A stretch of DNA of 23,995 nucleotides from contig CAYVSA010000021.1 of assembly GCA_964454175.1 (NCBI GenBank), positions 1 through 23,995 on the forward strand. The letters run 5' to 3'. Each line of letters begins with the position of its first letter. Position 1 is the first letter of the stretch. This DNA is from an uncultured Pseudomonadota bacterium (lineage in GTDB: Bacteria > BMS3Abin14). Below the pieces are notes generated by a model. That model was not told the origin of the DNA. It saw only the letters and a program-made list of their open reading frames with translations, and made no database searches. Positions 395-19,017 of this stretch are shown here, in pieces. The position numbers and the translations under genes are program-made.

Positions 395-1333
395 ATGACT
401 AGCAGAATGATGAAAAAGAGTCAACAGCCGCCTCTCCCCTACAGGTCTCTTGCCGGATACCTGCGCAGCATCTTTGGTGAGCCGGTCAGGAAAGTCCCGG
501 TGGACCCGGGGTTCGGCTGCCCTAACCGGGATGGAACAGTGGGCATCGACGGCTGCTCTTTCTGCAATCCGGAAAGCTTCGTCCCGCATTATGCTCTTAC
601 CGGGGGAGACCCCGTGGAGCAGGTCAGGAACCACCTCAAGGTGTTTCCAAAGTCCCGGTACATGATCTATCTGCAGGCTGGAACCGGGACCTACACCTCT
701 CCCGAAAAGTTCAGGTCCATGGTGGACAGGCTGATAGTGCTTGATGGAGCTGTGGGTCTGTTTGTGGGGACAAGGCCCGACTGCGTGGATGGTGAAATTC
801 TGGATGTGCTTACTCCCTATTCCGGCCGAAAACTGCTTTTCCTTGAGCTTGGTCTCCAGAGTGCTTCGGATGCTACCCTGGCCGCGATCGGCAGGGGACA
901 CGATGTTGCTGCCTTCATAAGGGCCAGGGCCGAGGCGCGAAAAAAGGAAATTCCCGTGTGTGCACACGTGATACTGGGGCTTCCCGGGGAGGATCACGGA
1001 GACATGATGGAAACTGCACGCTTCCTGGCCGACCAGGGTGTTGAGGGAGTCAAGATGCACCACCTTCAGGTAATAATGGGCACCCCCCTGGCAGAGTCCT
1101 GCATCAGGGGTGAACTGACGACCTTCGACCTCGATGAATATTCTGCCGTTGCAGCTGATTTTCTCGAAAGGCTTCGGCCGGACACAGTGATCCACAGGCT
1201 CGCTGCAGATGCCCCTGAGGACCTGCTTGTTGCGCCGAAATGGCCTTCACGACCGGGGGTTGCAGCAAAGATCAGTGAAAAGCTGCTTACACGAAAGAGT
1301 TTCCAGGGCAAACACTTCCGGGTCGGTGGATGA
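395..1333 (+). CDS. TIGR01212 family (YhcC/YtqA-like) radical SAM protein
   Basis: GFGCPNRDGTVGIDGCSFC cluster motif, GTRPDC, ELGLQS, HVILGLPGE, GVKMHHLQV; start could be 407 or 410. Confidence 0.9.
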   Translation: MTSRMMKKSQQPPLPYRSLAGYLRSIFGEPVRKVPVDPGFGCPNRDGTVGIDGCSFCNPESFVPHYALTGGDPVEQVRNHLKVFPKSRYMIYLQAGTGTYTSPEKFRSMVDRLIVLDGAVGLFVGTRPDCVDGEILDVLTPYSGRKLLFLELGLQSASDATLAAIGRGHDVAAFIRARAEARKKEIPVCAHVILGLPGEDHGDMMETARFLADQGVEGVKMHHLQVIMGTPLAESCIRGELTTFDLDEYSAVAADFLERLRPDTVIHRLAADAPEDLLVAPKWPSRPGVAAKISEKLLTRKSFQGKHFRVGG

Positions 1334-3026: not shown

Positions 3027-3731
3027 TTAAGGGCTTGAATCTCTGTGCATCATGGAAAGAAAACTCTTTAGACGGTTTTCGTCTTCTGGACTGAGGGTGA
3101 GAAACTCGATGCCGATACCTTCTGACGAGCCTTCCCTCCCGGGAGAAGTCCACCTCACAACCGCCCTGGTGAAGATAGTGCAGCCTGTGTCCGGGAGCTC
3201 GAAAGACAGTTCGACCGATCTGCCCTTTCCGGGCGCCGGTGAAATGGCAATGAAGGCACCACCCAGGGCAATACTTGTGATGATGCAGCCTGTTGAATGG
3301 CCGTCCGTCACAACCCTGCAGGAGAGGCTTGCAGGCACCCTCTTAAATCGTCTTTTAGCGACCTTGAGATTCTCTTCAATGGTGGCAAGGAGGGTGTCGC
3401 GCTGAATGGGCTTTGACACGAAGCCATTGCATCCGGCTGCGTAGCATCTTTCCAGAACGCCTTCAACGGTGTCCGAACAGGTCATTATAACCGGAGTCTT
3501 GCTGGTCGCGGGGTTTTCCTTGATGAGTCGGCAGACCTCATCACCGTTCATGCCAGGCATGAAAAGGTCCACCAGGACCAGGTCAGGTTCAACCCGCTTC
3601 ATGGCCTCCAGGGCATCTTCGCCCGACCGCGCCGTGAACACCGTAAGTGACTCCCTGGCCAGAAAGCTTTTCTCAAGGTCCAAAAAGAGATCTACGTCAT
3701 CAACGAGAAGGATTTTAATTTCGTCTGCCAG
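3027..3731 (-). CDS. Response regulator with receiver and C-terminal PilZ domain; probable CTG start at 3731
   Basis: The receiver's first strand and acidic pocket (KILLVDD) lie upstream of the track's TTG 3683; LVDLFMPGMNG, FVSKP; PilZ-like RRFKR and SIALGGAFI, ending GIGIEF. Confidence 0.85.
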   Translation of the reverse strand: MADEIKILLVDDVDLFLDLEKSFLARESLTVFTARSGEDALEAMKRVEPDLVLVDLFMPGMNGDEVCRLIKENPATSKTPVIMTCSDTVEGVLERCYAAGCNGFVSKPIQRDTLLATIEENLKVAKRRFKRVPASLSCRVVTDGHSTGCIITSIALGGAFIAISPAPGKGRSVELSFELPDTGCTIFTRAVVRWTSPGREGSSEGIGIEFLTLSPEDENRLKSFLSMMHRDSSP

Positions 3732-3915: not shown

Positions 3916-4929
3916 TTGTTCTCATCCGCATCTGTAAAACAAGCTGTACTGACTCTGGGCGCTGCTGCCGCCCTGATGCTCTTTGCACAGGGTGCGTCAG
4001 GGTCAATCACATGCAGCCAGTGTCACGGCGCCTGGATCGACCATGTGTCCACTCGGAGCGTGCTGCACTCCCCTTTTGCTGGAGAGGAATGTGAATCGTG
4101 TCATCGCGACCACGGTAAGACCAACGAGCTGACCCTCACATCCGAATCAACTGAACTGTGTCTGGGCTGTCACCTGAGCCCGGGGGATGGCTCCCTGGCC
4201 CATGTACCGGATAAGAAAGCCTGCCTGTCGTGCCACGATCCCCACGGCTCACGTGGGCCTGGCCTGACCAGAAAACCTTTTACCGATCTTTGCCTGGAGT
4301 GTCACGGCACCGTTGTGAAGGCATCTTACGTCCACAGGGCGCTTTCCGAAAAAGGATGCGGTGAATGTCACACTCCCCACAGTTCGAGTTTCGGGATGCT
4401 GTTGAAATCTGAACAGTCGAAGATCTGTAACAGCTGCCACGCTGTGCTGAACGGTGAAGAGAATGCTCATACAGCCCTTGTGGAATACAGTTGTACAGGC
4501 TGCCATGACCCGCACTCCTCAACAGAGTACCGGCTCCTGAAAGATGTATACGATGACAGGCTGTTTCCAGGCGCCTACAGCCAGGACAAATACAGTCTTT
4601 GTTTTAAATGTCACGACACCTTCCTGGTAACGGGAAAAGATGCCAGCGATACCCGGTTCAGGAACGGCGAGGTGAACCTTCACACCGTGCATGTTGTGGG
4701 TACCGTCCGGTACGAGGGAAAAGGACTGACTTTGTGGGGGAGATCGAGATCATGTGCCAATTGCCACGACCCTCACGGGGCAGTTGGGCCCTTTGACCTG
4801 AAAAAGTATATCGCCTGTACTGAAACTGTGTGCAGGACCCTCACATTCTTTCCGGAGCCGCAGGGAGGCAGGTGCCTTGTCGACTGTCACAAGAGTGCTT
4901 CCTACAACCGCGGCCCGATCCAGCCGTGA
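3916..4929 (+). CDS. Periplasmic multiheme c-type cytochrome (10 CXXCH + 1 CX3CH)
   Basis: CSQCH, CESCH, CLGCH, CLSCH, CLECH, CGECH, CNSCH, CTGCH, CFKCH, CANCH and CLVDCH; N-terminal hydrophobic signal; CHxPH paired-heme repeats. TTG start uncertain. Confidence 0.9.
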   Translation: MFSSASVKQAVLTLGAAAALMLFAQGASGSITCSQCHGAWIDHVSTRSVLHSPFAGEECESCHRDHGKTNELTLTSESTELCLGCHLSPGDGSLAHVPDKKACLSCHDPHGSRGPGLTRKPFTDLCLECHGTVVKASYVHRALSEKGCGECHTPHSSSFGMLLKSEQSKICNSCHAVLNGEENAHTALVEYSCTGCHDPHSSTEYRLLKDVYDDRLFPGAYSQDKYSLCFKCHDTFLVTGKDASDTRFRNGEVNLHTVHVVGTVRYEGKGLTLWGRSRSCANCHDPHGAVGPFDLKKYIACTETVCRTLTFFPEPQGGRCLVDCHKSASYNRGPIQP

Positions 4930-5172: not shown

Positions 5173-6183
5173 ATGTCAATAATCACCAGAGTGCTGACTC
5201 TGTGCGCAGCGGCCGTCATTCTGCTGTTTTCATCTACTGCATGGAGCCAGTGCTCAAAGTGTCATGAGGACTGGACCAGAAGCCTGCAGCAGAACAAGAT
5301 CATACACTCCGCCCTGGAGGACGATGGGTGCGAGGACTGTCACGATGATCACGGTGATAATGGCCGCCTGGTCCTGGTAGAAGACGGGAACAACCTGTGT
5401 CTCCAGTGCCATGACGGTCCAGAAGACGGTGCATCGGTCCACGAAGCACTGTCAGATGGTGACTGTACCGACTGCCACGATCCTCACGGCTCAAACAACA
5501 GTTCGCTGCTGGTAGAAACCCTGCCTGAGCTGTGCTTCCAATGTCACGATGACCCTGGTCAGGGAAAGTCTGTCCACGAGGTTGTGTCAGACGGAAGCTG
5601 TACCGACTGCCACGATCCTCACGCTTCAAAAAACAGTGCTCTTCTGGTGGAGGGAACACCGGGCCTGTGCCTTCAGTGCCATGATGTGCCGGAAAACCCC
5701 GGCAGCAAAGCGCACACAGCACTAACCGAGGGAGACTGTACTGACTGCCACAGAGCCCACGCCTCTGAAGAACCTCGACTCCTGGTCGAGCACTACGAGA
5801 CAAAAAGGTTCCCGGGCACTTTCGTCGAGGAGATGTATTCGCTCTGCTTCCAGTGCCATGAAGCGGAACTGGTAACCGGTCCCGCCCGGAGCACCGGATT
5901 CCGAAGTGGTTCAAAAAACCTTCATAACCTCCATGTTATGGGTGAGCTGAAGCCCAACAAATACGGTATTGTCAGGAGAGGCAAGGCCCGGTCTTGTTCC
6001 ATCTGTCACCAGCCCCATGGCTCCGAACAGGGGTTTAACCTCGTGAAGGAGTACAGGCACAACGGTATCCTGTTCTTTGCCCTTGATTATACTCCCACCG
6101 AAAACGGGGGGCGCTGTGTCGTGGGGTGTCACAAACCGAGAAGCTACAGCAGGTCTGTCCCGCAGGCGGGGAAGGCCGATTGA
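5173..6183 (+). CDS. Periplasmic multiheme c-type cytochrome (10 CXXCH + 1 CX3CH), paralog of the upstream gene
   Basis: Signal peptide ending AWS; CSKCH, CEDCH, CLQCH, CTDCH, CFQCH, CTDCH, CLQCH, CTDCH, CFQCH, CSICH, CVVGCH; SD GAGG; internal repeats of about 45 aa. Confidence 0.93.
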   Translation: MSIITRVLTLCAAAVILLFSSTAWSQCSKCHEDWTRSLQQNKIIHSALEDDGCEDCHDDHGDNGRLVLVEDGNNLCLQCHDGPEDGASVHEALSDGDCTDCHDPHGSNNSSLLVETLPELCFQCHDDPGQGKSVHEVVSDGSCTDCHDPHASKNSALLVEGTPGLCLQCHDVPENPGSKAHTALTEGDCTDCHRAHASEEPRLLVEHYETKRFPGTFVEEMYSLCFQCHEAELVTGPARSTGFRSGSKNLHNLHVMGELKPNKYGIVRRGKARSCSICHQPHGSEQGFNLVKEYRHNGILFFALDYTPTENGGRCVVGCHKPRSYSRSVPQAGKAD

Positions 6184-10472: not shown

Positions 10473-10985
10473 GTGACAGGGGAAAAACACCCATACGTTC
10501 AACTCGCACACAGGACCATCCTGGAGTTTGTTCGTGCAGGGAAGAGGCCGGCCCCGCCGCGCGAGCTGGTCTCGGCTGGCCAGGCCGGGGTTTTTGTAAG
10601 CCTCAAAACAGGCGGAAGGCTTCGGGGATGTATCGGGACAATTAATCCCGTCCATGAAAATCTTGCCGAAGAGATCATCGAAAATGCTGTGAGCGCTGCC
10701 ACCAGGGACCCGCGGTTCGCACCCGTCTCCCCTGAGGAACTGGACAGTCTCGACGTCTCGGTGGATGTCCTGACGCCCCCTGAACCGGTAGCTGACAGAT
10801 CAGACCTTGACGCTGCCAGATTCGGTGTCATAGTCAAGAGCAGGGGACTTACAGGGGTTCTGCTGCCCGATCTCGCCGGTGTCGACACCGTGGATGAGCA
10901 GCTCGACATTGCCAGAAAAAAAGCAGGCATAGGCCCTGATGAGAACTTTGAGATCTACCGGTTCGAGGTCAAGAGGTTTCGATGA
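10473..10985 (+). CDS. AMMECR1-domain protein (AmmeMemoRadiSam protein A type)
   Basis: GVFVSLK, LRGCIGT, AATRDPRF, SVDVL, GVLLPDL. Confidence 0.92.
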   Translation: MTGEKHPYVQLAHRTILEFVRAGKRPAPPRELVSAGQAGVFVSLKTGGRLRGCIGTINPVHENLAEEIIENAVSAATRDPRFAPVSPEELDSLDVSVDVLTPPEPVADRSDLDAARFGVIVKSRGLTGVLLPDLAGVDTVDEQLDIARKKAGIGPDENFEIYRFEVKRFR

Positions 10986-12385
10986 TCAGCACTGAACCTA
11001 CAGCTGAAAACCTGTTCAGCCTCCTTGTTGTGGACGATGAGGCCAGCGTCAGGGAGTCCCTCGAGCTTCTCCTTGAGGAGAGCTACAGGGTTTTCAAGGC
11101 TGCCGACGCGCTCGAGGCCCTCTCAAGGATAGAGGACGACGAGGTCGATCTTGTGATCCTGGACGTTACAATGCCGGGGATGGACGGCATGGAAACCTTG
11201 AGCCGCATCATGGAGCAGCCCTTTCCCCCTGAAGTTGTCATGCTCTCGGCAACGGACAGCGCCAGGCTGGGTATCCAGGCGGTAAAGGAGGGCGCCTACG
11301 ACTACATCGCCAAGCCTTTTGACAAGGAGGAGCTGCAGGAGGTGATCCGCAAGGCCCTCAGGAGGAGGAGCCTGGAGCGGGAGGTAACATTCCTCCGGAC
11401 GGAAGTAGATAAGCTCGGAGGATTTGGGGACATCGTTGGTATGTCACCCGTTATGATCGAGCTTTTCAGGATAATAGACAAGGTGGCCCAGACCGACACA
11501 AGCGTGCTCATAACAGGGGAGAGTGGGACCGGTAAGGAGCTCGTTGCCAGGGCGATCTACTCCAGGAGCCAGAGGAAAAAGGGCCCCTTCATACCTATTA
11601 ACTGCGCCGCCATCCCGCGGGAGCTCCTGGAAAGCGAATTCTTCGGCCACGAGAAGGGTGCGTTTACCAGCGCGCACAGCAGGAAGACGGGCAAGCTTGA
11701 GCTGGCAAACGGCGGCATTTTTTTCCTGGATGAGATCTCCACCCTCCAGCTGGAGCTTCAGGCAAAGCTTCTCAGGGTCCTTCAGGAAAGGGAGTTCATG
11801 CGGGTTGGCGGTGAACAGCAGATCCGGGTGGATGTTCAGGTTATAGCTGCCACGAACCAGGACCTGTCCGCGATGGTAAAAGCGGGAAAATTTCGGGAAG
11901 ACCTCTTTTACAGGCTCAACGTCATACCTATAATCCTGCCGCCCCTGCGTGACAGGAAACAGGACGTTCCTTTGCTTGTGAGGCACTTTTTGGATCTTTT
12001 ATGCGCGCGGTTGAGCAAAAAAACGCCAAAGGTTTCTCCCGAAGCCATGAAGGTCCTCAAATCCTATCACTGGCCTGGCAACGCCAGGGAACTTGAAAAT
12101 CTTCTTGAGCGGCTCGTAGTCCTCCTGCCGGAAGGCTCGGTGATCCAGGTTCAGGACCTCCCAATGGAGATAACGGTTGCCGGCAAGATCTCCGAGGCCG
12201 GTTCTGGCCCTGTTTCTGACGGTCTGCTGTCTGCCAGGGACCGTTTCGAAAAGATGTACATCCTGTCGGCCCTCAGGCGGGCCGGATGGAATCAGTCTGA
12301 GGCCGCCAAGCTACTGAAAGTTCACAGAAATACGCTCACCAAGAAAATATCCGCACTGGGGATAATTATACCTGAACAGCAGTAG
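10982..12385 (+). CDS. Sigma54-dependent response regulator (receiver, AAA+, Fis-type HTH; NtrC/AtoC family)
   Basis: LLVVDDE, LDVTMPGMDG, YIAKPF; GESGTGKE, NCAAIP, GHEKGAFTSA, FLDEI, FREDLFYRLNV, WPGNARELEN; HTH NQSEAAKLLKVHRNTLTKKI. ATGA overlap with the AMMECR1 gene. Confidence 0.95.
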   Translation: MISTEPTAENLFSLLVVDDEASVRESLELLLEESYRVFKAADALEALSRIEDDEVDLVILDVTMPGMDGMETLSRIMEQPFPPEVVMLSATDSARLGIQAVKEGAYDYIAKPFDKEELQEVIRKALRRRSLEREVTFLRTEVDKLGGFGDIVGMSPVMIELFRIIDKVAQTDTSVLITGESGTGKELVARAIYSRSQRKKGPFIPINCAAIPRELLESEFFGHEKGAFTSAHSRKTGKLELANGGIFFLDEISTLQLELQAKLLRVLQEREFMRVGGEQQIRVDVQVIAATNQDLSAMVKAGKFREDLFYRLNVIPIILPPLRDRKQDVPLLVRHFLDLLCARLSKKTPKVSPEAMKVLKSYHWPGNARELENLLERLVVLLPEGSVIQVQDLPMEITVAGKISEAGSGPVSDGLLSARDRFEKMYILSALRRAGWNQSEAAKLLKVHRNTLTKKISALGIIIPEQQ

Positions 12386-12404
12386 GCACACACTTTTGAA
12401 CTAG

Positions 12405-12422
12405 TGCACACGATCATGTGCA
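12405..12422. promoter_or_regulatory. Enhancer (UAS) palindrome 1, TGCACA-N6-TGTGCA
   Basis: TGCACACGATCATGTGCA; degenerate neighbour GGCACACACTTTTGAACT 20 bp upstream (12385-12402). Confidence 0.8.
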
Positions 12423-12486
12423 CATCCCCTATCTCACTGAATTAACAGTAAAATTCCACTGAAATCCATGTCAGCAGCAGTTACAC

Positions 12487-12504
12487 TGCACACGATCGTG
12501 TGCA
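12487..12504. promoter_or_regulatory. Enhancer (UAS) palindrome 2
   Basis: Perfect 18-bp palindrome TGCACACGATCGTGTGCA, about 110 bp upstream of the predicted sigma54 start site. Confidence 0.85.
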
Positions 12505-12578
12505 ATAAAAGTGTGACGCGTGTGGGGGCGATTCGCAAAAAAGCAGCAAAAACAGCCAGTTGGAAGTGTCAGCGGTTT

Positions 12579-12594
12579 TGGCAAGAGTCTTGCT
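12579..12594 (+). promoter_or_regulatory. Sigma54 -24/-12 promoter of the small peptide gene
   Basis: TGGCAAGAGTCTTGCT: GG 12580-12581, exactly 10 nt, GC 12592-12593; matches TGGCAC-N5-TTGCW with one mismatch. Confidence 0.88.
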
Positions 12595-12646
12595 TCTTAA
12601 GGGTTAACAGTTGATCTGAAACCCATGTAATTAAAGGAGGCATGAA

Positions 12647-12742
12647 ATGAAGAGGATTATCGCTACGCTGACACTGACTGCTCTTACCGTTATCGGCCTG
12701 GCATCTGTGGCCCTGGCATGCGGGGGTGGTGGGGGCCTGTAA
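12647..12742 (+). CDS. 31-aa secreted-peptide precursor: MKRIIATLTLTALTVIGLASVALA-CGGGGGL
   Basis: SD AAAGGAGG (12633-12640) 6 nt before ATG; basic n-region MKR, hydrophobic h-region, A-L-A cleavage motif; TAA 12740-12742; own promoter and terminator. Shorter than any ORF in the track. Confidence 0.85.
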   Translation: MKRIIATLTLTALTVIGLASVALACGGGGGL

Positions 12743-12772
12743 GAGACATTTGCAGATCGTTCCGTTCCGGAT

Positions 12773-12799
12773 AAGGGGGAGCTTTTGCTCCCCCTTTGT
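12773..12799 (+). terminator. Intrinsic terminator-like hairpin after the peptide gene
   Basis: AAGGGGGAGC-TTTT-GCTCCCCCTT perfect 10-bp stem; short U tail (TTTGT), so read-through is possible. Confidence 0.8.
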
Positions 12800-12970
12800 G
12801 CGTTGAAGCAGTTTTCCTACCTATGCGCTGGTAAAAGACATTTATTTCAGATATAACTTCAATACCTGTTTAAATGGCAGTCTCAGAGTTTTAATTAGCC
12901 ATCAAAGTTGGATCGAATTACGCATCCGGGTTCCCTGGCTGTTCCCGGAGTTGTACGGAGCTGACATCTG

Positions 12971-14563
12971 ATGCAGCAAGCGCGTTTTTACACAGGGGCA
13001 CTCTCCCTGGTCCTGATAATATTTTTCACCTCCATCCTGTCTCTCTCTCCGGCAGAAGCGTCCGGTGTGTTCCGCTTCCCCCTTTTCTGGATAGCTTCGA
13101 CATTCGATCCGGTGTTTGATTCTTCCAACTCTATTTCCTACATAGCTCAGCAGGTTGGAGACGGTCTGGTTGCCTACGACAGGAACCTCAGGGTAATTCC
13201 CGGCCTGGCAAAAAGCTGGAGGGTCAGCAAGGACGGCAGGGAATACCTGTTCACCCTCAGGGACGGCGTCAAATTCCACAACGGCAAACCACTCACTGCT
13301 GATGATGTAGTTGCCTCCATCCTGAGGATCTTCAGGTCGGGCAAGCTGCCGGCACAGGGTATGTTTTTTGAGCGCATAGACGGAGCTTCGGAGCTCCTGG
13401 AGGGAAAGGCTGAAACACTTTCCGGTCTGGAAGCTGTTTCCGAGGGGGAGGTAAGGCTCCGGCTCGCCGAGCCCTATGCGCCCTTTTTGTCCTCCCTGGC
13501 CACGCCCCTTGCCAAGATAATCCCCGCCAATCTCGCCAGGGATACCACCGGAATGTACGGCAGACATCCCGTTGGCACGGGCCCTTTCGTTTTTGTCTCT
13601 GCAGACGAGAAGGAGATCATCCTCAGGGCCAACCCGGATTATTTCAGCGGCCCCCCAAAGTTGGACGAGATCCGCTTTGTGCTTTACAGGGGTGGTGACA
13701 GGGACAAAGCTTTTACCGACTTCAAGGAGGGACGACTCGAAGGCGCGCCCCTTCCCGGGTCCGTCGATCCGGCACAGCTTCGCAAAACAGGCTTCAATGT
13801 GATCTCCAGGCCGCGCCTCTCAATGATGTTCTACGGCATGAATGTAAAAGTCCCGCCGTTCGACAACCCGGATCTGAGGATGGCCCTGGCCCTTGGGACC
13901 GACAGAAAAACAAACGTCAGTAAAAAACTGGGAGGCAGCCACTTTCCGGCCAACCAGATACTGCCCCCCGGCATGCCGGGATACACGCCGGACAACGCCC
14001 TCCTTAAGTATGATCCAAAAAAGGCCGCCAGGCTCCTTGAAAAAGCTGGTTATCCACAGGGCAGAGGCCTCGAGGACCTGAATCTGGCCTCGGCTTCTCA
14101 CTCCAACTTCGCAGTCAGGGAACTGGAGCTTTTCGCAGCTGACATGGCCAGGCTTGGTGTAAAAGTGAGCCCTGTTTTTGTGGACAGCTGGGATGAGTTC
14201 AAAAAAGGTGTTGTTGAAGGCAAATATCCGCTCTTCAGGTATGCCTGGTACGCTGACGCACCTTCACCCGATGATTTCATGGCGCCCCTTTTTGAGACCG
14301 GATCCAGCGCGAACCTGACCCACTTCAGCCGTCATGATGTGGACAGTCTCCTGGAGAAAGCCAGGAAGGAGATAGATCCGGCAAAACGTGCCGGGCTTTA
14401 TAGAAAGGCAGAGAGTACTGTTCTGAATGATGCTCCAGTTATACCCCTCCTGTTCATCTCCACCCAGGCTGTCTTCCAGGCCTGGGTTCATGGCATAGAC
14501 CTTCCTGCCATCGGAAGTCCATACATGCCCCTCAGGCAAGTATCGGTAAGGGGCGCTCCCTGA
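12971..14563 (+). CDS. Family 5 (OppA/DppA-like) periplasmic solute-binding protein; no cognate permease in the window
   Basis: Signal peptide ending AEA; PGLAKSWRVSKDGREYLFTLRDGVKFHNGKPLTADDV signature, PVGTGPF, PPFDNPDLRMAL, YDPKKAARLLEKAGY, DAPVIPL. Confidence 0.93.
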   Translation: MQQARFYTGALSLVLIIFFTSILSLSPAEASGVFRFPLFWIASTFDPVFDSSNSISYIAQQVGDGLVAYDRNLRVIPGLAKSWRVSKDGREYLFTLRDGVKFHNGKPLTADDVVASILRIFRSGKLPAQGMFFERIDGASELLEGKAETLSGLEAVSEGEVRLRLAEPYAPFLSSLATPLAKIIPANLARDTTGMYGRHPVGTGPFVFVSADEKEIILRANPDYFSGPPKLDEIRFVLYRGGDRDKAFTDFKEGRLEGAPLPGSVDPAQLRKTGFNVISRPRLSMMFYGMNVKVPPFDNPDLRMALALGTDRKTNVSKKLGGSHFPANQILPPGMPGYTPDNALLKYDPKKAARLLEKAGYPQGRGLEDLNLASASHSNFAVRELELFAADMARLGVKVSPVFVDSWDEFKKGVVEGKYPLFRYAWYADAPSPDDFMAPLFETGSSANLTHFSRHDVDSLLEKARKEIDPAKRAGLYRKAESTVLNDAPVIPLLFISTQAVFQAWVHGIDLPAIGSPYMPLRQVSVRGAP

Positions 14564-14576
14564 CGGCAGGGTTGAA

Positions 14577-16403
14577 ATGGGCCGTACCACTCTTCAGAAA
14601 AAACTAACATTCCTGTTCGGAGCCATAATTGTAGCTGTCGTTCTGACGGTGGGGGGGATATCTGTCTACCATGCCAGGGACCTTCTCATAGAGCAGGCAA
14701 GGAGGACTGGGACTGCTCTGGCGGGCAGTATCGCAGCCGCATCTTCCAACGATTTTTTCAACTACAACTACGTCGGGCTTGAGCAAAAAGCTGAGGAAGC
14801 AAGCCGCGATCCCGAGGTAGCCTACGTTATCCTTTACGATAAAGAGGGGAAGGTGGCCGCTTATTCCGGGCAGGGCTCTGCTGAAAGCCGGTCTGCGCCT
14901 GAAAACCTGGAACCGGCCCTGACAGCAACAGGCAATACCCTTATCTCCGGAGGTCTCATGGAGGGTTTTTCCGGACGGGGCCTCGATATCATCGTATCAG
15001 TCACCATGGACGAAGGCGGCAGCGCGTGGGGCAGCGTACGCCTGGGCCTGAGGCTTGACCGGATCTACAACAGGATTACGCTGCTGACATGGCTTGTCTT
15101 CTTCCTGTGTCTTGCCGGTATTCTGGTTGGCGCGGCGGCATCGGCAGTTTTTACCAGGCGCATAACAGTACCGCTAAAGAACCTGGTTGACGCGGCAGTG
15201 CAGGTTTCGGAGGGGGAATTCGAGACCCGGATCCGGGTTAAGACCGGTGATGAAGTCCAGGACCTTGCCGACAACTTCAACTGGATGGTAAGCCAGCTTG
15301 CGCAGCAGCGCAGCAGCCTCGAGGAGAATCTCCGGGAAATAAAGCGGCTCAAGCACTACAGCGATCTGGTTATCCTTTCAATAACCAACGGTCTCGTCAC
15401 AATGGGGAGTGACGGGGAAATAATCTCCTTTAACAGGATGGCCGAAAGTATCCTCGACGCACCAGCTGAGGATGTTCTCGGCAGAACACCGACCCAGGTG
15501 TGGGGCAGCCAGGCGGCCGTGGCCGTGATGGAGGCTGCACCGGGCGGCGGCGGGACCCCCAGAGAGGATGAAGTGAGGTGGGTCACATCGGATGGCCAGG
15601 AGCGCACTCTCCAGATGACGACCACCGATATACAGGAGGGGGACGGTACTACGGTTGGACGCCTGGCACTCATTTCCGATCTCACAGAGAAAAAGGAGCT
15701 TGAAAAGCGGGTGAAACGGGCTGACCGCCTGGCCGCCCTGGGCACCCTGGCAGCGGGCTTGGCCCACGAGATAAGGAACCCCCTGACAGCCATCAGGACT
15801 TTTGTGCAGCTCGTACCGGAAAGACATGAAAACTCACTTTTCATGGACAAGTTTAACAGGACCGTTCCCCGGGAGCTTGACCGGGTCAACAACCTCCTCG
15901 AAGATCTCCTCGATCTGGTTCGAAAGCCGACGTTAAACATTACTCAAATCAGGCTGAAAGACTGTGTTGACCATGTTCTGGACACTCTGGGACCCGAGAT
16001 AGACAAGAGGGGTGTGGATGTCCAGGTGAACTTTACAGGTGGGTCCGGTTCTGTCAGGGCGGACATGGACTATCTGACGAGGGCAATGTTCAACGTGATC
16101 CTTAACGCGGTCCAGGCCATGCCTCAGGGCGGCTCACTCCGCATCAGTTCGGAAAGAAATGCCCAGCAGGGAGAGCCCGAGGCAGAAGTCATAACCATTT
16201 CCGATGATGGTTTCGGGATCCCGGACGAATACCTTGATGAGGTTTTTAACCCTTTCTTTACCAACAAGGACAAGGGAACCGGACTTGGGCTGGCCGTTAC
16301 AAACAAGATAATTGAGGATCTTGGCGGCTCCATCTCGGTTCAAAGTGAAAGGGGCAGAGGAACAGATTTCACGATAAGCCTGCCAGTTTTCGAACCGCAC
16401 TGA
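14577..16403 (+). CDS. Membrane sensor histidine kinase (TM, periplasmic domain, TM, HAMP, PAS, HisKA, HATPase)
   Basis: Two TM segments; HAMP (ITVPLKNL...GDEVQDLADNFNWM); PAS (FNRMAESIL); H-box LAHEIRNPL; NVILNAVQAM, DDGFGIP, FNPFFTNK, GTGLGL; starts 13 nt after the binding-protein stop. Confidence 0.95.
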   Translation: MGRTTLQKKLTFLFGAIIVAVVLTVGGISVYHARDLLIEQARRTGTALAGSIAAASSNDFFNYNYVGLEQKAEEASRDPEVAYVILYDKEGKVAAYSGQGSAESRSAPENLEPALTATGNTLISGGLMEGFSGRGLDIIVSVTMDEGGSAWGSVRLGLRLDRIYNRITLLTWLVFFLCLAGILVGAAASAVFTRRITVPLKNLVDAAVQVSEGEFETRIRVKTGDEVQDLADNFNWMVSQLAQQRSSLEENLREIKRLKHYSDLVILSITNGLVTMGSDGEIISFNRMAESILDAPAEDVLGRTPTQVWGSQAAVAVMEAAPGGGGTPREDEVRWVTSDGQERTLQMTTTDIQEGDGTTVGRLALISDLTEKKELEKRVKRADRLAALGTLAAGLAHEIRNPLTAIRTFVQLVPERHENSLFMDKFNRTVPRELDRVNNLLEDLLDLVRKPTLNITQIRLKDCVDHVLDTLGPEIDKRGVDVQVNFTGGSGSVRADMDYLTRAMFNVILNAVQAMPQGGSLRISSERNAQQGEPEAEVITISDDGFGIPDEYLDEVFNPFFTNKDKGTGLGLAVTNKIIEDLGGSISVQSERGRGTDFTISLPVFEPH

Positions 16404-16407
16404 TTTG

Positions 16408-16444
16408 TGCACACGAATGTGTGCACTGCACATGATCATGTGCA
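16408..16444. promoter_or_regulatory. Tandem enhancer palindromes 3 and 4 (same TGCACA-N6-TGTGCA motif)
   Basis: TGCACACGAATGTGTGCA (16408-16425) and perfect TGCACATGATCATGTGCA (16427-16444), 19-bp period. Confidence 0.85.
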
Positions 16445-16467
16445 GCTATGCCGCTGTTGTATGCCTG

Positions 16468-16480
16468 TAACCTCTTGAAT
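16468..16480. promoter_or_regulatory. IHF-like site between enhancer and sigma54 promoter
   Basis: TAACCTCTTGAAT versus consensus YAANNNNTTGATW, one mismatch. Confidence 0.5.
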
Positions 16481-16507
16481 TTACAGAAAACATACTCTTT
16501 CCATTTC

Positions 16508-16523
16508 TGGCCTGTTTCTTGCT
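16508..16523 (+). promoter_or_regulatory. Sigma54 -24/-12 promoter upstream of the two receiver genes
   Basis: TGGCCTGTTTCTTGCT: GG 16509-16510, 10 nt, GC 16521-16522. Confidence 0.8.
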
Positions 16524-16631
16524 GATCAACACCCTGAGGAATTTTCACAGAAGCTGAATCCCTGTGCGTATTGTCTGATCAACACAGTGCGTGGCAGGGT
16601 CGGGGTGCAATATTTGGAAGGAGGCGAATTA

Positions 16632-16997
16632 ATGGATAAGAAAGTCCTGCTCGTAGTTGATGACAGTGTGGGGATTGTCGAGAGCATGAACGTTCTGTTC
16701 AGCGACGATTTTGAAGTGTTTTCTGCAGCCACCGTTACCGAGGCACTGGGTATTTTGGAAAAGATACAGCCGGATATGATCCTTCTTGACTACCTGATGC
16801 CCGGTTTAAATGGGGTTCACCTTTTGCGGGAGATCCGGCAGATGAAAATGGCGTCCAAGGTCATTCTGGTCACCGCGTCAGTTTGGGAGGGAGTTAAAGA
16901 GGAGGTCATGAGTCTGGGCGTAGATGGTTTCGTCCGAAAACCTTTTGACATATGGGAGCTCGAGGCCATTGCAAGGGGTATTCTTGCTGTAGCCTGA
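16632..16997 (+). CDS. Single-domain response regulator (receiver only)
   Basis: MDKKVLLVVDD, LLDYLMPGLNG, VTAS, FVRKPF; SD AAGGAGG supports ATG 16632. Confidence 0.9.
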   Translation: MDKKVLLVVDDSVGIVESMNVLFSDDFEVFSAATVTEALGILEKIQPDMILLDYLMPGLNGVHLLREIRQMKMASKVILVTASVWEGVKEEVMSLGVDGFVRKPFDIWELEAIARGILAVA

Positions 16998-17093
16998 GCG
17001 GTTCATGTTTGACAGGTGCTTGGTTGGGGGACCGGATAGTGCAGCATTACTTTGAATTCACTTTAGATGCCTGGGACATCTTGGGAGATCTTG

Positions 17094-17498
17094 ATGAAGT
17101 ACAGCATCCTGGACAAAAAAGAATACTGCAAAGGCAGGAAGGTGCTTATAGTCGATGACAATCCGGATGTTCTTTGGCTCCTTGACGACCTGTTGAAGCG
17201 GAGCCTGGAAGTTCAGGTTGCTACTGCGGAAAATGGTAAAATTGCACTGGAAACAGCAAGAGAAGTCCAGCCGGACCTTATCCTCATGGACCTTATGATG
17301 CCCGTCATGAACGGTCTGGAAGCTATACAAGAGATAAAGGGCGATGAGAATCTCAGCAGTGTACCTGTTCTGGCTTTTACCGCACTCATTAACACCTTCC
17401 AGCGGGATGAGGTCATGGAGCATGGCTTTGAGGAATGCCTTGAAAAGCCTCTTGATTTTGACGAACTGAAGAATATGGTTTTCAGGTACCTTACCTGA
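17094..17498 (+). CDS. Single-domain response regulator (receiver only)
   Basis: KVLIVDDN, LMDLMMPVMNG, FTA, LEKPL; GGGAG before ATG 17094 (17067 is the alternative start). Confidence 0.88.
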   Translation: MKYSILDKKEYCKGRKVLIVDDNPDVLWLLDDLLKRSLEVQVATAENGKIALETAREVQPDLILMDLMMPVMNGLEAIQEIKGDENLSSVPVLAFTALINTFQRDEVMEHGFEECLEKPLDFDELKNMVFRYLT

Positions 17499-17649: not shown

Positions 17650-19017
17650 TCAGGGTGTATTGGTAAATTCCAGAACCTTGACCGTAACTTCCTTGCTGTC
17701 CAGCGGCGGGTTCTCCATAACCATGAGGAATGGGATGCTGCCGCCGGGGGGGATCGAAGCATTACTCAGGGACTGCCCGAGTTCGTTGTTCATCGCTGAA
17801 CGTATTTCGGGAAGCCCCAGTTCCCCGAGTTCCACGTCGGTAAAGAGGTTCCCGCAAAAAGATTCGATCTTCGCGAGCTCCTGACCGTCTTCACGTTTGA
17901 ATATAGCCTGAACCTTGATAATGCCTTTATTTACCGAGAAACCGTTCGTCACCCGCCCGCGAATTGTTGCCAGGATGGCCCCGTCACTGCGTTTTAGGGT
18001 CCCCACTGTAATATTCTCAACTGCCATATTCTCGGCAATCTCTGCTGACCTGGATGGTATAAGAGCCTTGATGGAAGGGTAGTTGTAGTATCCGGCAGCC
18101 AGCAAGAGCACAAGAAGGAGAAACAACCGAAGTCCCTTTGAGCTCTTACGGGGAGAAGAAGGTTTCGCATCGGGTTTCTTTCGTACCTTTGTAGATGGTT
18201 CAACGTAGTTTGCCGGCTCCTCCTCCCCTTTGTCAGGATCGTCCGGATCATCAGGCAGGAGATCAGGCGCCGGTGTTGTGATGCCTAAAGTACCTGAATC
18301 ATCCTCAACCGGCTCGCTCTGGTCCAGGGAGATGTTTCCCCAATCCATGGATCCCGGTGTCTGAGTGGCAGACTGCTGATCTGTCTGGACATCCACACCG
18401 GGAGGTTCAGGTTCACTGCCAAGTCCACGGAGGGGCGTGAGGCCGGGCTCATCGAGAGCAGGGTGCGACTCGGGGCCTGGATCCGGTTTGTCTGGAGGCG
18501 AGAGTTCACCGGGTACATCTTCGTCGTGATCGGGAGGAGCCGGGATGGGCGGTTCTTCTACTGGTTTGTCTCCTTCGGACCCGCCGGCTGGTGTTCCGAA
18601 TTCCGGGGTGGCGGGTACAAAAGATTCTTCGCCAGGCTCACCTATCAGCGAACTCAACGCATCGTCAATGTCAGAATCATCTGAAGATTCCCCCCCCGGC
18701 GCTCCAGATTCTGGAGGGCTGACCACAGGCGGTACTGGTGCATCAGGTTCCGGCAGTGGTTCTTCTGCGGGTCCGGGCCCCTTGTTATCTTCCACAGCTG
18801 AAGCCGATGGTTCCCGGAGGTCAGGCGTGTCGTCTGGAGAGGGTATCTCGCTGGGGAGCTGCGGGTCGAGTGCAGGGGATTTTGAGGGCTCAGGAGCAGG
18901 CAGCTTGACGACGAACACATTCTTGCACTTGGCACAACGGACCTTTATACCCTGAGGGAGTATCTTCTCCTCAGCGATCCTGTACTTTGAGCTGCAGCTG
19001 TCGCATTGTACTATCAA
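17650..19017 (-). CDS. Zinc-ribbon (MJ0042-type) protein with acidic Pro-rich linker, TM helix and DUF3426-like C-terminal domain
   Basis: MIVQCDSCSSKYRI...KVRCAKCKNVF; long P/E/D-rich region; TM LFLLLVLLLAAGYY; C-terminal IRGRVTN...IPPGGSIPFLMV. Confidence 0.85.
   Translation of the reverse strand: MIVQCDSCSSKYRIAEEKILPQGIKVRCAKCKNVFVVKLPAPEPSKSPALDPQLPSEIPSPDDTPDLREPSASAVEDNKGPGPAEEPLPEPDAPVPPVVSPPESGAPGGESSDDSDIDDALSSLIGEPGEESFVPATPEFGTPAGGSEGDKPVEEPPIPAPPDHDEDVPGELSPPDKPDPGPESHPALDEPGLTPLRGLGSEPEPPGVDVQTDQQSATQTPGSMDWGNISLDQSEPVEDDSGTLGITTPAPDLLPDDPDDPDKGEEEPANYVEPSTKVRKKPDAKPSSPRKSSKGLRLFLLLVLLLAAGYYNYPSIKALIPSRSAEIAENMAVENITVGTLKRSDGAILATIRGRVTNGFSVNKGIIKVQAIFKREDGQELAKIESFCGNLFTDVELGELGLPEIRSAMNNELGQSLSNASIPPGGSIPFLMVMENPPLDSKEVTVKVLEFTNTP

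Follow-up and report, generated by a model that had tools for sequence, protein, structure and literature searches.

The 23,995-nt stretch of DNA analysed here (contig CAYVSA010000021.1; the window hereafter, always at its whole length) carries a 31-codon gene for a small exported peptide, located between the gene of an NtrC-type sigma-54 activator and the genes of a peptide-type binding protein and a sensor histidine kinase. We propose that these genes form a conserved four-part signalling module in which the self-made peptide is fed back through binding protein, kinase and activator, a reading to which we give slightly less than an even chance. If correct, it would place a linear, unmodified, Sec-exported peptide in a kinase-signalling role in bacteria with an outer membrane, and would represent an undescribed kind of self-signalling loop in two-membrane bacteria of several distantly related uncultured lineages.

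The peptide gene and its regulation

The product of the 31-codon open reading frame (ORF) consists of a 24-residue Sec-type signal peptide, whose basic N-terminus leads into a hydrophobic stretch and a final small-x-small motif, followed by Cys, five Gly and Leu. Upstream lies a GGAGG-type ribosome site, its end 6 nt from the ATG. Strong ribosome sites precede eight of the nine peptide starts listed for the family; at the ninth (locus L029) the script took an earlier Met, and the likelier start there also has a ribosome site. The Gly codons of the peptide genes differ synonymously between loci. Following the ORF is a hairpin of 10 G+C pairs (12773-12796; -26.3 kcal/mol, z = -2.8), and an equivalent hairpin follows the peptide ORF in all six loci folded. 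A generic terminator scan did not flag the hairpin of the window because its T run is short. The predicted peptide transcript, closed by this hairpin, is about 200 nt long, and on the comparative evidence the ORF is to be regarded as a real, conserved coding gene.

Every part that a first-pass annotation had listed for the locus (activator, enhancers, promoters, ORF with terminator, binding protein, kinase, receivers) was found again, all on the + strand:

10982..12385, + strand: NtrC-type sigma-54 enhancer-binding response regulator (Pfam: receiver, AAA+ sigma-54 interaction, AAA lid and HTH_8 domains)
12405..12422, no strand given: enhancer palindrome 1, 18 bp, two 6-base half-sites with a 6-base spacer (pattern scan; alignment)
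12487..12504, no strand given: enhancer palindrome 2, perfect (pattern scan; alignment)
12579..12594, + strand: sigma-54 (-24/-12) promoter of the peptide gene, 1 mismatch to consensus
12647..12742, + strand: peptide micro-ORF, 31 codons plus stop (translation, orthologues)
12773..12796, + strand: intrinsic terminator hairpin, 10 pairs, then a U-rich run (folding)
12971..14563, + strand: exported family 5 (DppA/OppA-like) solute-binding protein (Pfam, PDB sequence search, fold match)
14577..16403, + strand: sensor histidine kinase with membrane helix, periplasmic single-Cache domain, membrane helix, HAMP, PAS, HisKA and HATPase (Pfam, model)
16408..16425 and 16427..16444, no strand given: enhancer palindromes 3 and 4 (pattern scan)
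16508..16523, + strand: second sigma-54 promoter, 2 mismatches to consensus, spacing correct
16632..16997, + strand: receiver-only response regulator 1, revised start (Pfam, sequence)
17067..17498, + strand: receiver-only response regulator 2, which may start at 17094 (Pfam, translation)

The genome also contains rpoN (E = 4.3e-61) and the genes for LpxC and Omp85, so that sigma-54 and an outer membrane can both be assigned to the host.

The activator matched the Pfam receiver (E = 6.6e-29), AAA+ sigma-54 interaction (E = 1.9e-72) and HTH_8 (E = 3.7e-13) models. Its nearest NCBIfam models were AtoC/NtrC, below the equivalog cut-offs, and its orthologues in synteny showed 61-67% identity. These domains, the presence of rpoN in the genome and the -24/-12 targets behind upstream binding sites are those of an NtrC-type regulator. 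An AMMECR1 gene (AmmeMemoRadiSam system protein A; window 10473-10985, + strand) overlaps the start of the activator gene by 4 nt, so that the two may be co-transcribed. A radical SAM gene lies further upstream (window 395-1333, + strand), and this AMMECR1/radical SAM neighbourhood is not kept in relatives.

The 18-bp palindrome has four matches in the window (12405, 12487, 16408 and 16427) where 0.01 would be expected, a number never attained in 100 shuffles. The loose sigma-54 pattern was not above chance in the window (14 matches versus 13.5 expected); the two sigma-54 sites are credible because of their position and conservation, not because of the pattern count. In the seven upstream regions that were aligned, the -24 and -12 blocks of the peptide promoter and the palindrome half-sites are invariant throughout, and conservation outside the two palindromes and these blocks is limited to islands at the ribosome site and the start. 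The second sigma-54 promoter is located ~65-100 nt behind palindromes 3 and 4, and two relatives (G002 and G021) carry a palindrome at the same position as the window's, between kinase and receiver. That an enhancer and a sigma-54 promoter are conserved in front of the peptide gene makes the step from activator to peptide gene, which the first-pass annotation had postulated, well supported at the sequence level; the peptide gene would thus be induced by the system's own response regulator. In three loci of the Methylomirabilota type (L028, L029 and L128) the palindromes keep the outer half-site bases of the window's and the spacer is one base shorter. The shared half-sites suggest that the DNA specificity of the activator is conserved across peptide subtypes.

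A scan of the 2.17-Mb genome, allowing one mismatch in the 12 specified bases, found the palindrome nine times; eight copies are perfect, and all of these are arranged as four pairs. Two pairs are those of the window, one before the peptide gene and one before the two receiver genes. The third is found at the end of contig C27 of the host genome (G000), followed by a -24/-12 element. The end of C27 and the start of contig C15 overlap by exactly 55 nt and can be joined, and a receiver-PilZ gene starts there; the join puts the palindrome pair and the sigma-54 promoter in front of this gene. The fourth pair occupies bases 81-120 of a short contig (C124 of G000, 1-2677, locus L111), where its target is cut off by the contig end; genes for a YgaP-like membrane protein, a DUF4197 protein and a receiver-HD-GYP protein lie beside it. 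In relatives, genes of three kinds lie behind the palindrome: that of the peptide, that of the receiver following the kinase, and one for a receiver-PilZ protein. The receiver-PilZ gene in question is divergent from the activator gene in G002; in G011 it is found elsewhere, beside receiver-HD-GYP and CHASE-kinase genes. A receiver-PilZ protein encoded in the window itself (3027-3683, - strand) is a paralogue of those whose genes bear the palindrome elsewhere. The genome has at least four such paralogues, and the genome scan placed no palindrome next to the 3027-3683 copy.

For receiver 1, an ATG at 16632 behind a ribosome site is a likelier start than the GTG at 16587, and the gene is kept downstream of the kinase in G011, G002, G013 and G021. 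The nearest relative of receiver 2 in G002 is a receiver-PilZ protein with its own palindrome. As judged from its sites, the regulon of the activator appears to be limited to the peptide gene and genes for receiver-type signalling proteins, a number of which are linked to cyclic di-GMP (c-di-GMP). The circuit had been pictured earlier as feedback onto the peptide. The peptide gene is a target well supported by sequence, and receiver and receiver-PilZ genes also lie behind palindromes. Because the activator also drives these genes, the circuit would have outputs beyond the peptide.

Distribution and variation of the peptide family

A search with the binding protein covered 61 genomes, 15 of which matched at E ≤ 1e-60. 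The order activator, gap, binding protein, kinase, receiver is kept where contigs allow, and a micro-ORF of the same design was present in all six activator-to-binding-protein gaps first examined. A scan of public genomes with the binding-protein alignment, in which one degenerate pattern brought in mostly ordinary family 5 proteins, gave at least 80 loci. Among the 80 loci kept, three held activator, binding protein and kinase together, and the micro-ORF was there in each; they come from two metagenome-assembled genomes (MAGs) of Methylomirabilota/Rokuibacteriota and one MAG labelled Proteobacteria. Absence of the small ORF from syntenic loci, which would have counted against the first-pass proposal, was thus tested in the six gaps and the three further loci, and the ORF was found in every one.

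A profile built from nine peptides was run over 401 genomes and matched 17. Sixteen matches are real, with one copy each, adjoining the activator gene, the binding-protein gene or both. The seventeenth was counted as false, as it lies inside a 1576-residue frame with neither neighbour present. When the results of both queries were compared over the 61 genomes, 13 had peptide and binding protein, 45 had neither and three were exceptions: two at contig ends (G005 and G017) and one (G041) with a weak binding-protein match (33% identity) and no kinase beside it. A heuristic upstream search for signal-peptide micro-ORFs found none at three distant binding-protein/kinase pairs lacking the activator (L030, L032 and L026); at L035, L036, L025 and L027 there is little or no upstream DNA. 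By this comparison the peptide gene is tightly linked to the genes of activator, binding protein and kinase.

One single-contig genome (G010) has its locus split in two (L023 and L022). At 1.47 Mb the activator and peptide genes are followed by the binding-protein gene up to residue ~312, and residues ~144-526 of the binding protein are found with the kinase at 0.25 Mb; either the locus was rearranged and partly duplicated, or the contig is misassembled.

A word-indexed search of 5.8 billion proteins gave 660 matches with E ≤ 10 among 993 candidates, the best 120 at E ≤ 2.7e-5. Pfam domains were absent from these best 120 of the 660 matches, and the only name given to them was 'hypothetical protein'. 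An exhaustive profile search of 1.84 billion representatives (50% identity clusters) returned 43 matches at E ≤ 0.001, a few of them over-extended or doubtful frames. Direct scans produced no significant Pfam match for the nine peptides and no NCBIfam match for the peptide of the window, whose best scores in the Protein Atlas (0.81-0.83) were to unnamed clusters and below the meaningful level. A family of genes of 30-45 codons with neither a Pfam nor an NCBIfam model thus forms the conserved centre of a signalling locus.

Members of the family share a common plan: a Sec-type leader, then Ala, one variable residue, three to seven Gly (mostly four or five), up to two variable residues and the stop. 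Three subtypes could be distinguished. The peptide of the window belongs to type A. In type B the leader end contains Pro and the tail ends in Pro plus one residue. Type C, found in Methylomirabilota, measures ~45 residues and has an invariant stretch of ~20 residues between the hydrophobic segment and an acidic residue with the glycine tail. The glycine run is common to all three subtypes and to very distant lineages, and the leaders differ.

Among 30 unique type B precursors, no columns vary more than those of the first tail residue (entropy 1.82 bits) and of the final residue (2.09 bits), and leader positions 9-24 do not exceed 0.67 bits. The filter for type B demanded a glycine run and Pro, so that the invariance of these is partly imposed; the variability of the ends is not. 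A similar picture emerged from three genomes of one genus. Seven nucleotide differences fall in the 24 leader codons, none of which alters an amino acid, and all five Gly codons differ synonymously; the first tail codon shows a Cys-to-Ser change, and the last codon has differences at each of its three bases. Non-synonymous changes within the genus are therefore confined to the tail ends. In this small sample, protein-level constraint on leader and glycines together with turnover at both ends makes up what appears to be the pattern expected of ligand specificity determinants. Diversification of the mature peptide between close relatives, of the kind seen with Agr and Com, is thus found at the tail ends, and the glycine core does not take part in it.

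The Cys of the CGGGGGL tail named in the first-pass annotation turned out not to be conserved: it occupies the second most variable position of the peptide. A lipoprotein as the general rule was rejected, since Cys stands at +1 in only five of the 30 type B sequences and is replaced elsewhere by Ser, Asn, Asp, Gly and others. In the alignments the conserved core of the peptide is the glycine run, and both ends vary.

A candidate receptor and its known counterparts

The binding protein carries an N-terminal signal peptide. Its best sequence matches in the PDB are a peptide-binding protein (8upi) and DppA, and its model (pLDDT 89.6) has DppA (1dpe) as best fold match, with HbpA2, MppA and OppA structures also matched. 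In DppA, Asp408 is the ligand salt-bridge residue in dipeptide binding, as stated in a paper on the related GbpA family (PMC3295651). The corresponding residue, Asp429, is invariant in 13 of 13 orthologues drawn from all three subtypes. These data support a protein of the peptide-binding kind that keeps the Asp anchoring a peptide amino terminus, in line with the earlier remark that family 5 proteins often bind short peptides.

Among the 23 window ORFs scanned for domains, none had an ATP-binding cassette (ABC) permease or ATPase domain, which bears out the earlier remark that the binding protein comes without either. Two paralogues of the binding protein exist in the genome, both followed by ABC permease genes; the locus copy is followed by the kinase gene, 13 nt away, and this synteny holds in relatives. 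The layout is not that of an ABC importer operon, the binding protein being coupled to a kinase gene with neither permease nor ATPase beside it. In a tree of 18 binding-protein sequences, the peptide-linked ones fall within one group of 12 whose support (84/90) lies below the tool's star threshold; the group also holds one long-branched sequence with no peptide found.

The periplasmic sensor of the kinase was modelled as a single-Cache fold between two membrane helices (pLDDT 81.6). Its best fold matches are the WalK extracellular domain (TM 0.74-0.75, TM being the fold-comparison score), followed by DcuS and CitA. An exported binding protein encoded beside a kinase and not beside a transporter, and a folded periplasmic sensor domain, are the hallmarks of a binding-protein-dependent kinase. 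A complex prediction for binding protein (31-530) and sensor domain (32-166), made from 13-row alignments without controls, scored 0.01 and 0.00 against a mark of 0.32, and speaks neither for nor against an interaction.

Kinases that depend on a binding protein are known from LuxPQ, TorTS, the family 5 pair CBP-ChiS, and AioXS with its Cache-like sensor, as presented in PMC8050422. The LuxP/LuxQ-LuxU-LuxO pathway of Vibrio resembles the present locus in that a periplasmic binding protein with a self-made signal controls a membrane kinase (PDB 2HJ9; PMC8050422) and in that the output regulator, LuxO, is an NtrC-type sigma-54 activator closing the quorum pathway (PMC8895600). It differs in its kinase, LuxQ having a double-Cache-like sensor domain (PMC8050422) and being a hybrid that signals through LuxU (PMC8895600). 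The signal is different too, AI-2 being a small molecule and no ribosomal peptide, and its synthesis is not under LuxO control in this manner. LuxP belongs to a binding-protein family other than that of the locus protein; the direct targets of LuxO are short transcripts, the Qrr RNAs, which recall the ~200-nt peptide transcript.

In the CBP-ChiS system of Vibrio cholerae a family 5 (SBP_bac_5) binding protein regulates a sensor kinase; its ligand, in contrast, is an environmental chitin oligosaccharide, the CBP gene lies with transporter and signalling genes, and the description of the system in PMC8050422, so far as it extends, includes neither a small peptide gene nor a sigma-54 activator. 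AioX-AioS-AioR likewise combines a binding protein, a kinase with a single-Cache-like sensor and an activator (PMC8050422). Unlike the present locus, it has arsenite as its ligand and a binding protein of the phosphonate-binding family, with no self-made ligand. AioR is a sigma-54 activator.

According to the account in PMC8895600, peptide signalling through kinases is described for Gram-positive bacteria and small-molecule signalling for Gram-negative ones, and auto-induced peptide precursors are known from the former. In the Agr and Com systems a ribosomal precursor gene is induced, with positive feedback, by the regulator of the system that senses its product (PMC8895600). These systems differ from the locus in their dedicated export and processing machines, none of which has a counterpart of the Agr/Com type in the loci examined, and in direct binding of the peptide to polytopic kinases; the locus has a Sec-type leader, putative detection by a binding protein and a two-helix Cache kinase, and a host with an outer membrane. 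Agr and Com peptide variants differ between close strains.

MgrB-PhoQ and DbfQ-DbfS resemble the locus in that a small protein, exported or membrane-bound, is encoded together with a two-component system or induced by it and acts back on the kinase, as reported in PMC8404706 and PMC12714742. They share no sequence relationship with the peptide, have no dedicated peptide-type binding protein, and are folded or helical proteins of ~47 residues or more as opposed to a hexapeptide tail. DppA and OppA themselves share with the locus protein the fold, the best sequence matches and the conserved Asp that pairs with the ligand amino terminus; the locus protein is set apart by the lack of permease and ATPase genes nearby, by Ala in place of the Arg clamp and by the coupling of its gene to a kinase.

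The architecture had not been recognised as a described system in the first-pass annotation, and our literature search, which did not extend to subscription journals or supplementary files, likewise found no description of the peptide family or of the whole architecture. Within that literature the combination of a Sec-exported micro-peptide, a transporter-less OppA-like protein, a Cache kinase, a sigma-54 activator and an outer-membrane host appears unprecedented, as does the peptide family itself. To our knowledge, the design of a receptor from binding protein and kinase has so far been known for AI-2, sugars, trimethylamine N-oxide (TMAO) and arsenite, and we know of no described signalling system of such a kind in Methylomirabilota/Rokuibacteriota.

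The proposed circuit and competing explanations

In the circuit that we propose, the phosphorylated NtrC-type activator would bind the paired palindromes and, with sigma-54, transcribe the ~200-nt monocistronic message for the 31-residue precursor. Sec would export the precursor and signal peptidase I cut it, yielding a peptide of 6-7 residues made up of a variable residue, four or five Gly and a further variable residue. The transporter-less DppA/OppA-like protein would hold this peptide in its cleft by the free amino terminus and, once loaded, would alter the output of the adjacent Cache-domain kinase, which would set the phosphorylation state of the activator. The cell would thereby sense its self-made peptide in an autocrine or quorum-type loop, and the receiver-only and receiver-PilZ proteins induced by the activator could relay the output to behaviour linked to c-di-GMP or act as a phosphate sink. 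That the precursor is cleaved, that the peptide is bound and is released from the cell, and that binding protein and kinase touch are steps that we infer from the arrangement and makeup of the genes. As to the sign of the feedback, we lean modestly towards a positive one. The loop is preferred as the simplest circuit because it uses every conserved part.

A number of findings weigh against this circuit. The position of DppA Arg355, which clamps the dipeptide carboxylate, is Ala in the binding protein, so the binding mode must differ from the one in DppA. A ligand could also be bound directly by the Cache domain, as happens in DcuS and CitA, its neighbours in fold. Across very distant lineages the glycine core appears near-invariant, unlike classical pheromones, which diverge over their full length, and a glycine run offers no side chains for recognition. 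The activator has the sigma-54 contact loop (window 11660-11680, residues ~226-232) with a non-canonical fifth residue, Ser versus the canonical Gly. Finally, a Pro at +1 disfavours signal peptidase I, and this is the residue at +1 after the hydrophobic segment in type C, the Methylomirabilota-type members. In these the tail lies far from that segment, beyond the ~20-residue stretch, so that simple release of a hexapeptide by signal peptidase is not a universal rule; either type C would need a second cut, or its whole mature peptide of ~28 residues would act.

The main rival explanation holds that the peptide is a feedback micro-protein. Cleaved, or membrane-anchored with a short periplasmic tail, it would bind the Cache or membrane-helix region of the kinase and damp or reset it, as MgrB does with PhoQ and DbfQ with DbfS, and the binding protein would sense some other external ligand such as peptides or cell-wall fragments. 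The position of the peptide gene within the regulon of its cognate activator follows the pattern given for MgrB in PMC8404706, and DbfQ, in the account of PMC12714742, is likewise small, exported and encoded next to its kinase. A functional membrane helix would also explain the unusual conservation of the hydrophobic segment within subtypes (≤0.67 bits at positions 9-24), and WalK, the nearest fold neighbour of the sensor, is found in the PDB also as a model with a partner, YycH (9a5d). Such a micro-protein would nevertheless leave unexplained the constant company of a peptide-type binding protein without transporter, the anchor Asp for an amino terminus retained in that protein, and an evolution that is fast at the tail ends rather than in the helix. 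No sequence similarity to the MgrB, DbfQ, CpxP or ZraP families was detected either (Pfam for the nine peptides, NCBIfam for that of the window). We consider this explanation unlikely, though one to be taken seriously.

Enterococcal sex pheromones are cut from lipoprotein signal peptides and bound by the OppA-like PrgZ, and the signal could by analogy be a fragment of the hydrophobic leader, with the glycine tail as a minimal mature domain permitting export and cleavage. The binding protein has PrgZ (4faj) among its relatives of known structure, each subtype keeps its leader strongly conserved, and the tail seems too simple to hold much information. It is nonetheless the glycine run that is kept across three subtypes and distant lineages while leaders differ, and the tail ends, not the leader, that diversify. 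In the loci examined, neither an Eep-like gene nor any other gene for processing is linked, and a leader-derived signal strikes us as very improbable. The simplicity of the tail could also be read in terms of metal binding. The free amino terminus and backbone amides of oligoglycine chelate Cu(II) or Ni(II), so that a poor recognition surface is a good backbone chelator, and a binding protein related to NikA or CntA might sense the complex. Family 5 includes nickel and metallophore binders, models of the NikA, NikZ and CntA type are among the weaker matches, and Cys, Asp, His, Ser and Asn all occur as first tail residue. That residue is, on the other side, often Gly or Ala, the best matches of the binding protein are peptide binders and not NikA, and neither locus nor regulon contains a gene for metal transport, efflux or resistance; we regard metal-peptide sensing as very improbable. 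The peptide ORF might, lastly, act in cis, its run of Gly codons sensing the supply of glycyl-tRNA or stalling the ribosome and thereby controlling whether transcription passes the terminator to reach the genes of binding protein and kinase. An attenuator would look much like this, with a run of one codon in a short ORF, a terminator ~30 nt on and downstream genes without an obvious promoter of their own. The same ~30 nt between stop codon and hairpin are beyond the reach of the ribosome, the signal peptide and the variable tail ends would have no role, and the downstream genes are unrelated to glycine. In four of four loci folded, moreover, the terminator folds independently of the Gly codons, with no shared alternative pairing and no terminator/antiterminator pairing that overlaps them, and the attenuator reading, in our view extremely improbable, was rejected.

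The peptide feedback loop can also be put in a stronger form. The Sec-exported, unmodified oligoglycine hexa- or heptapeptide would then be a diffusible autoinducer in several distant lineages of outer-membrane bacteria. An OppA-like protein without a transporter, docked to a Cache kinase, would recognise it outside the cytoplasm, a sigma-54 activator would amplify it, and its two hypervariable ends would define pherotype-like specificity groups. This would amount to a peptide quorum-sensing architecture without a described counterpart; we think it somewhat unlikely.

Elsewhere in the window, two genes at 3916-4929 and 5173-6183 (+ strand) encode multihaem cytochromes in which the CXXCH repeats are doubled and which match MtrC/MtrF-like domains weakly. 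Beyond the receiver genes, at 17650-19017 (- strand), lies the gene of a 455-residue protein with an N-terminal MJ0042-type zinc ribbon, which weakly matches DUF3426 and the beginning of GltJ, a gliding-motility protein.

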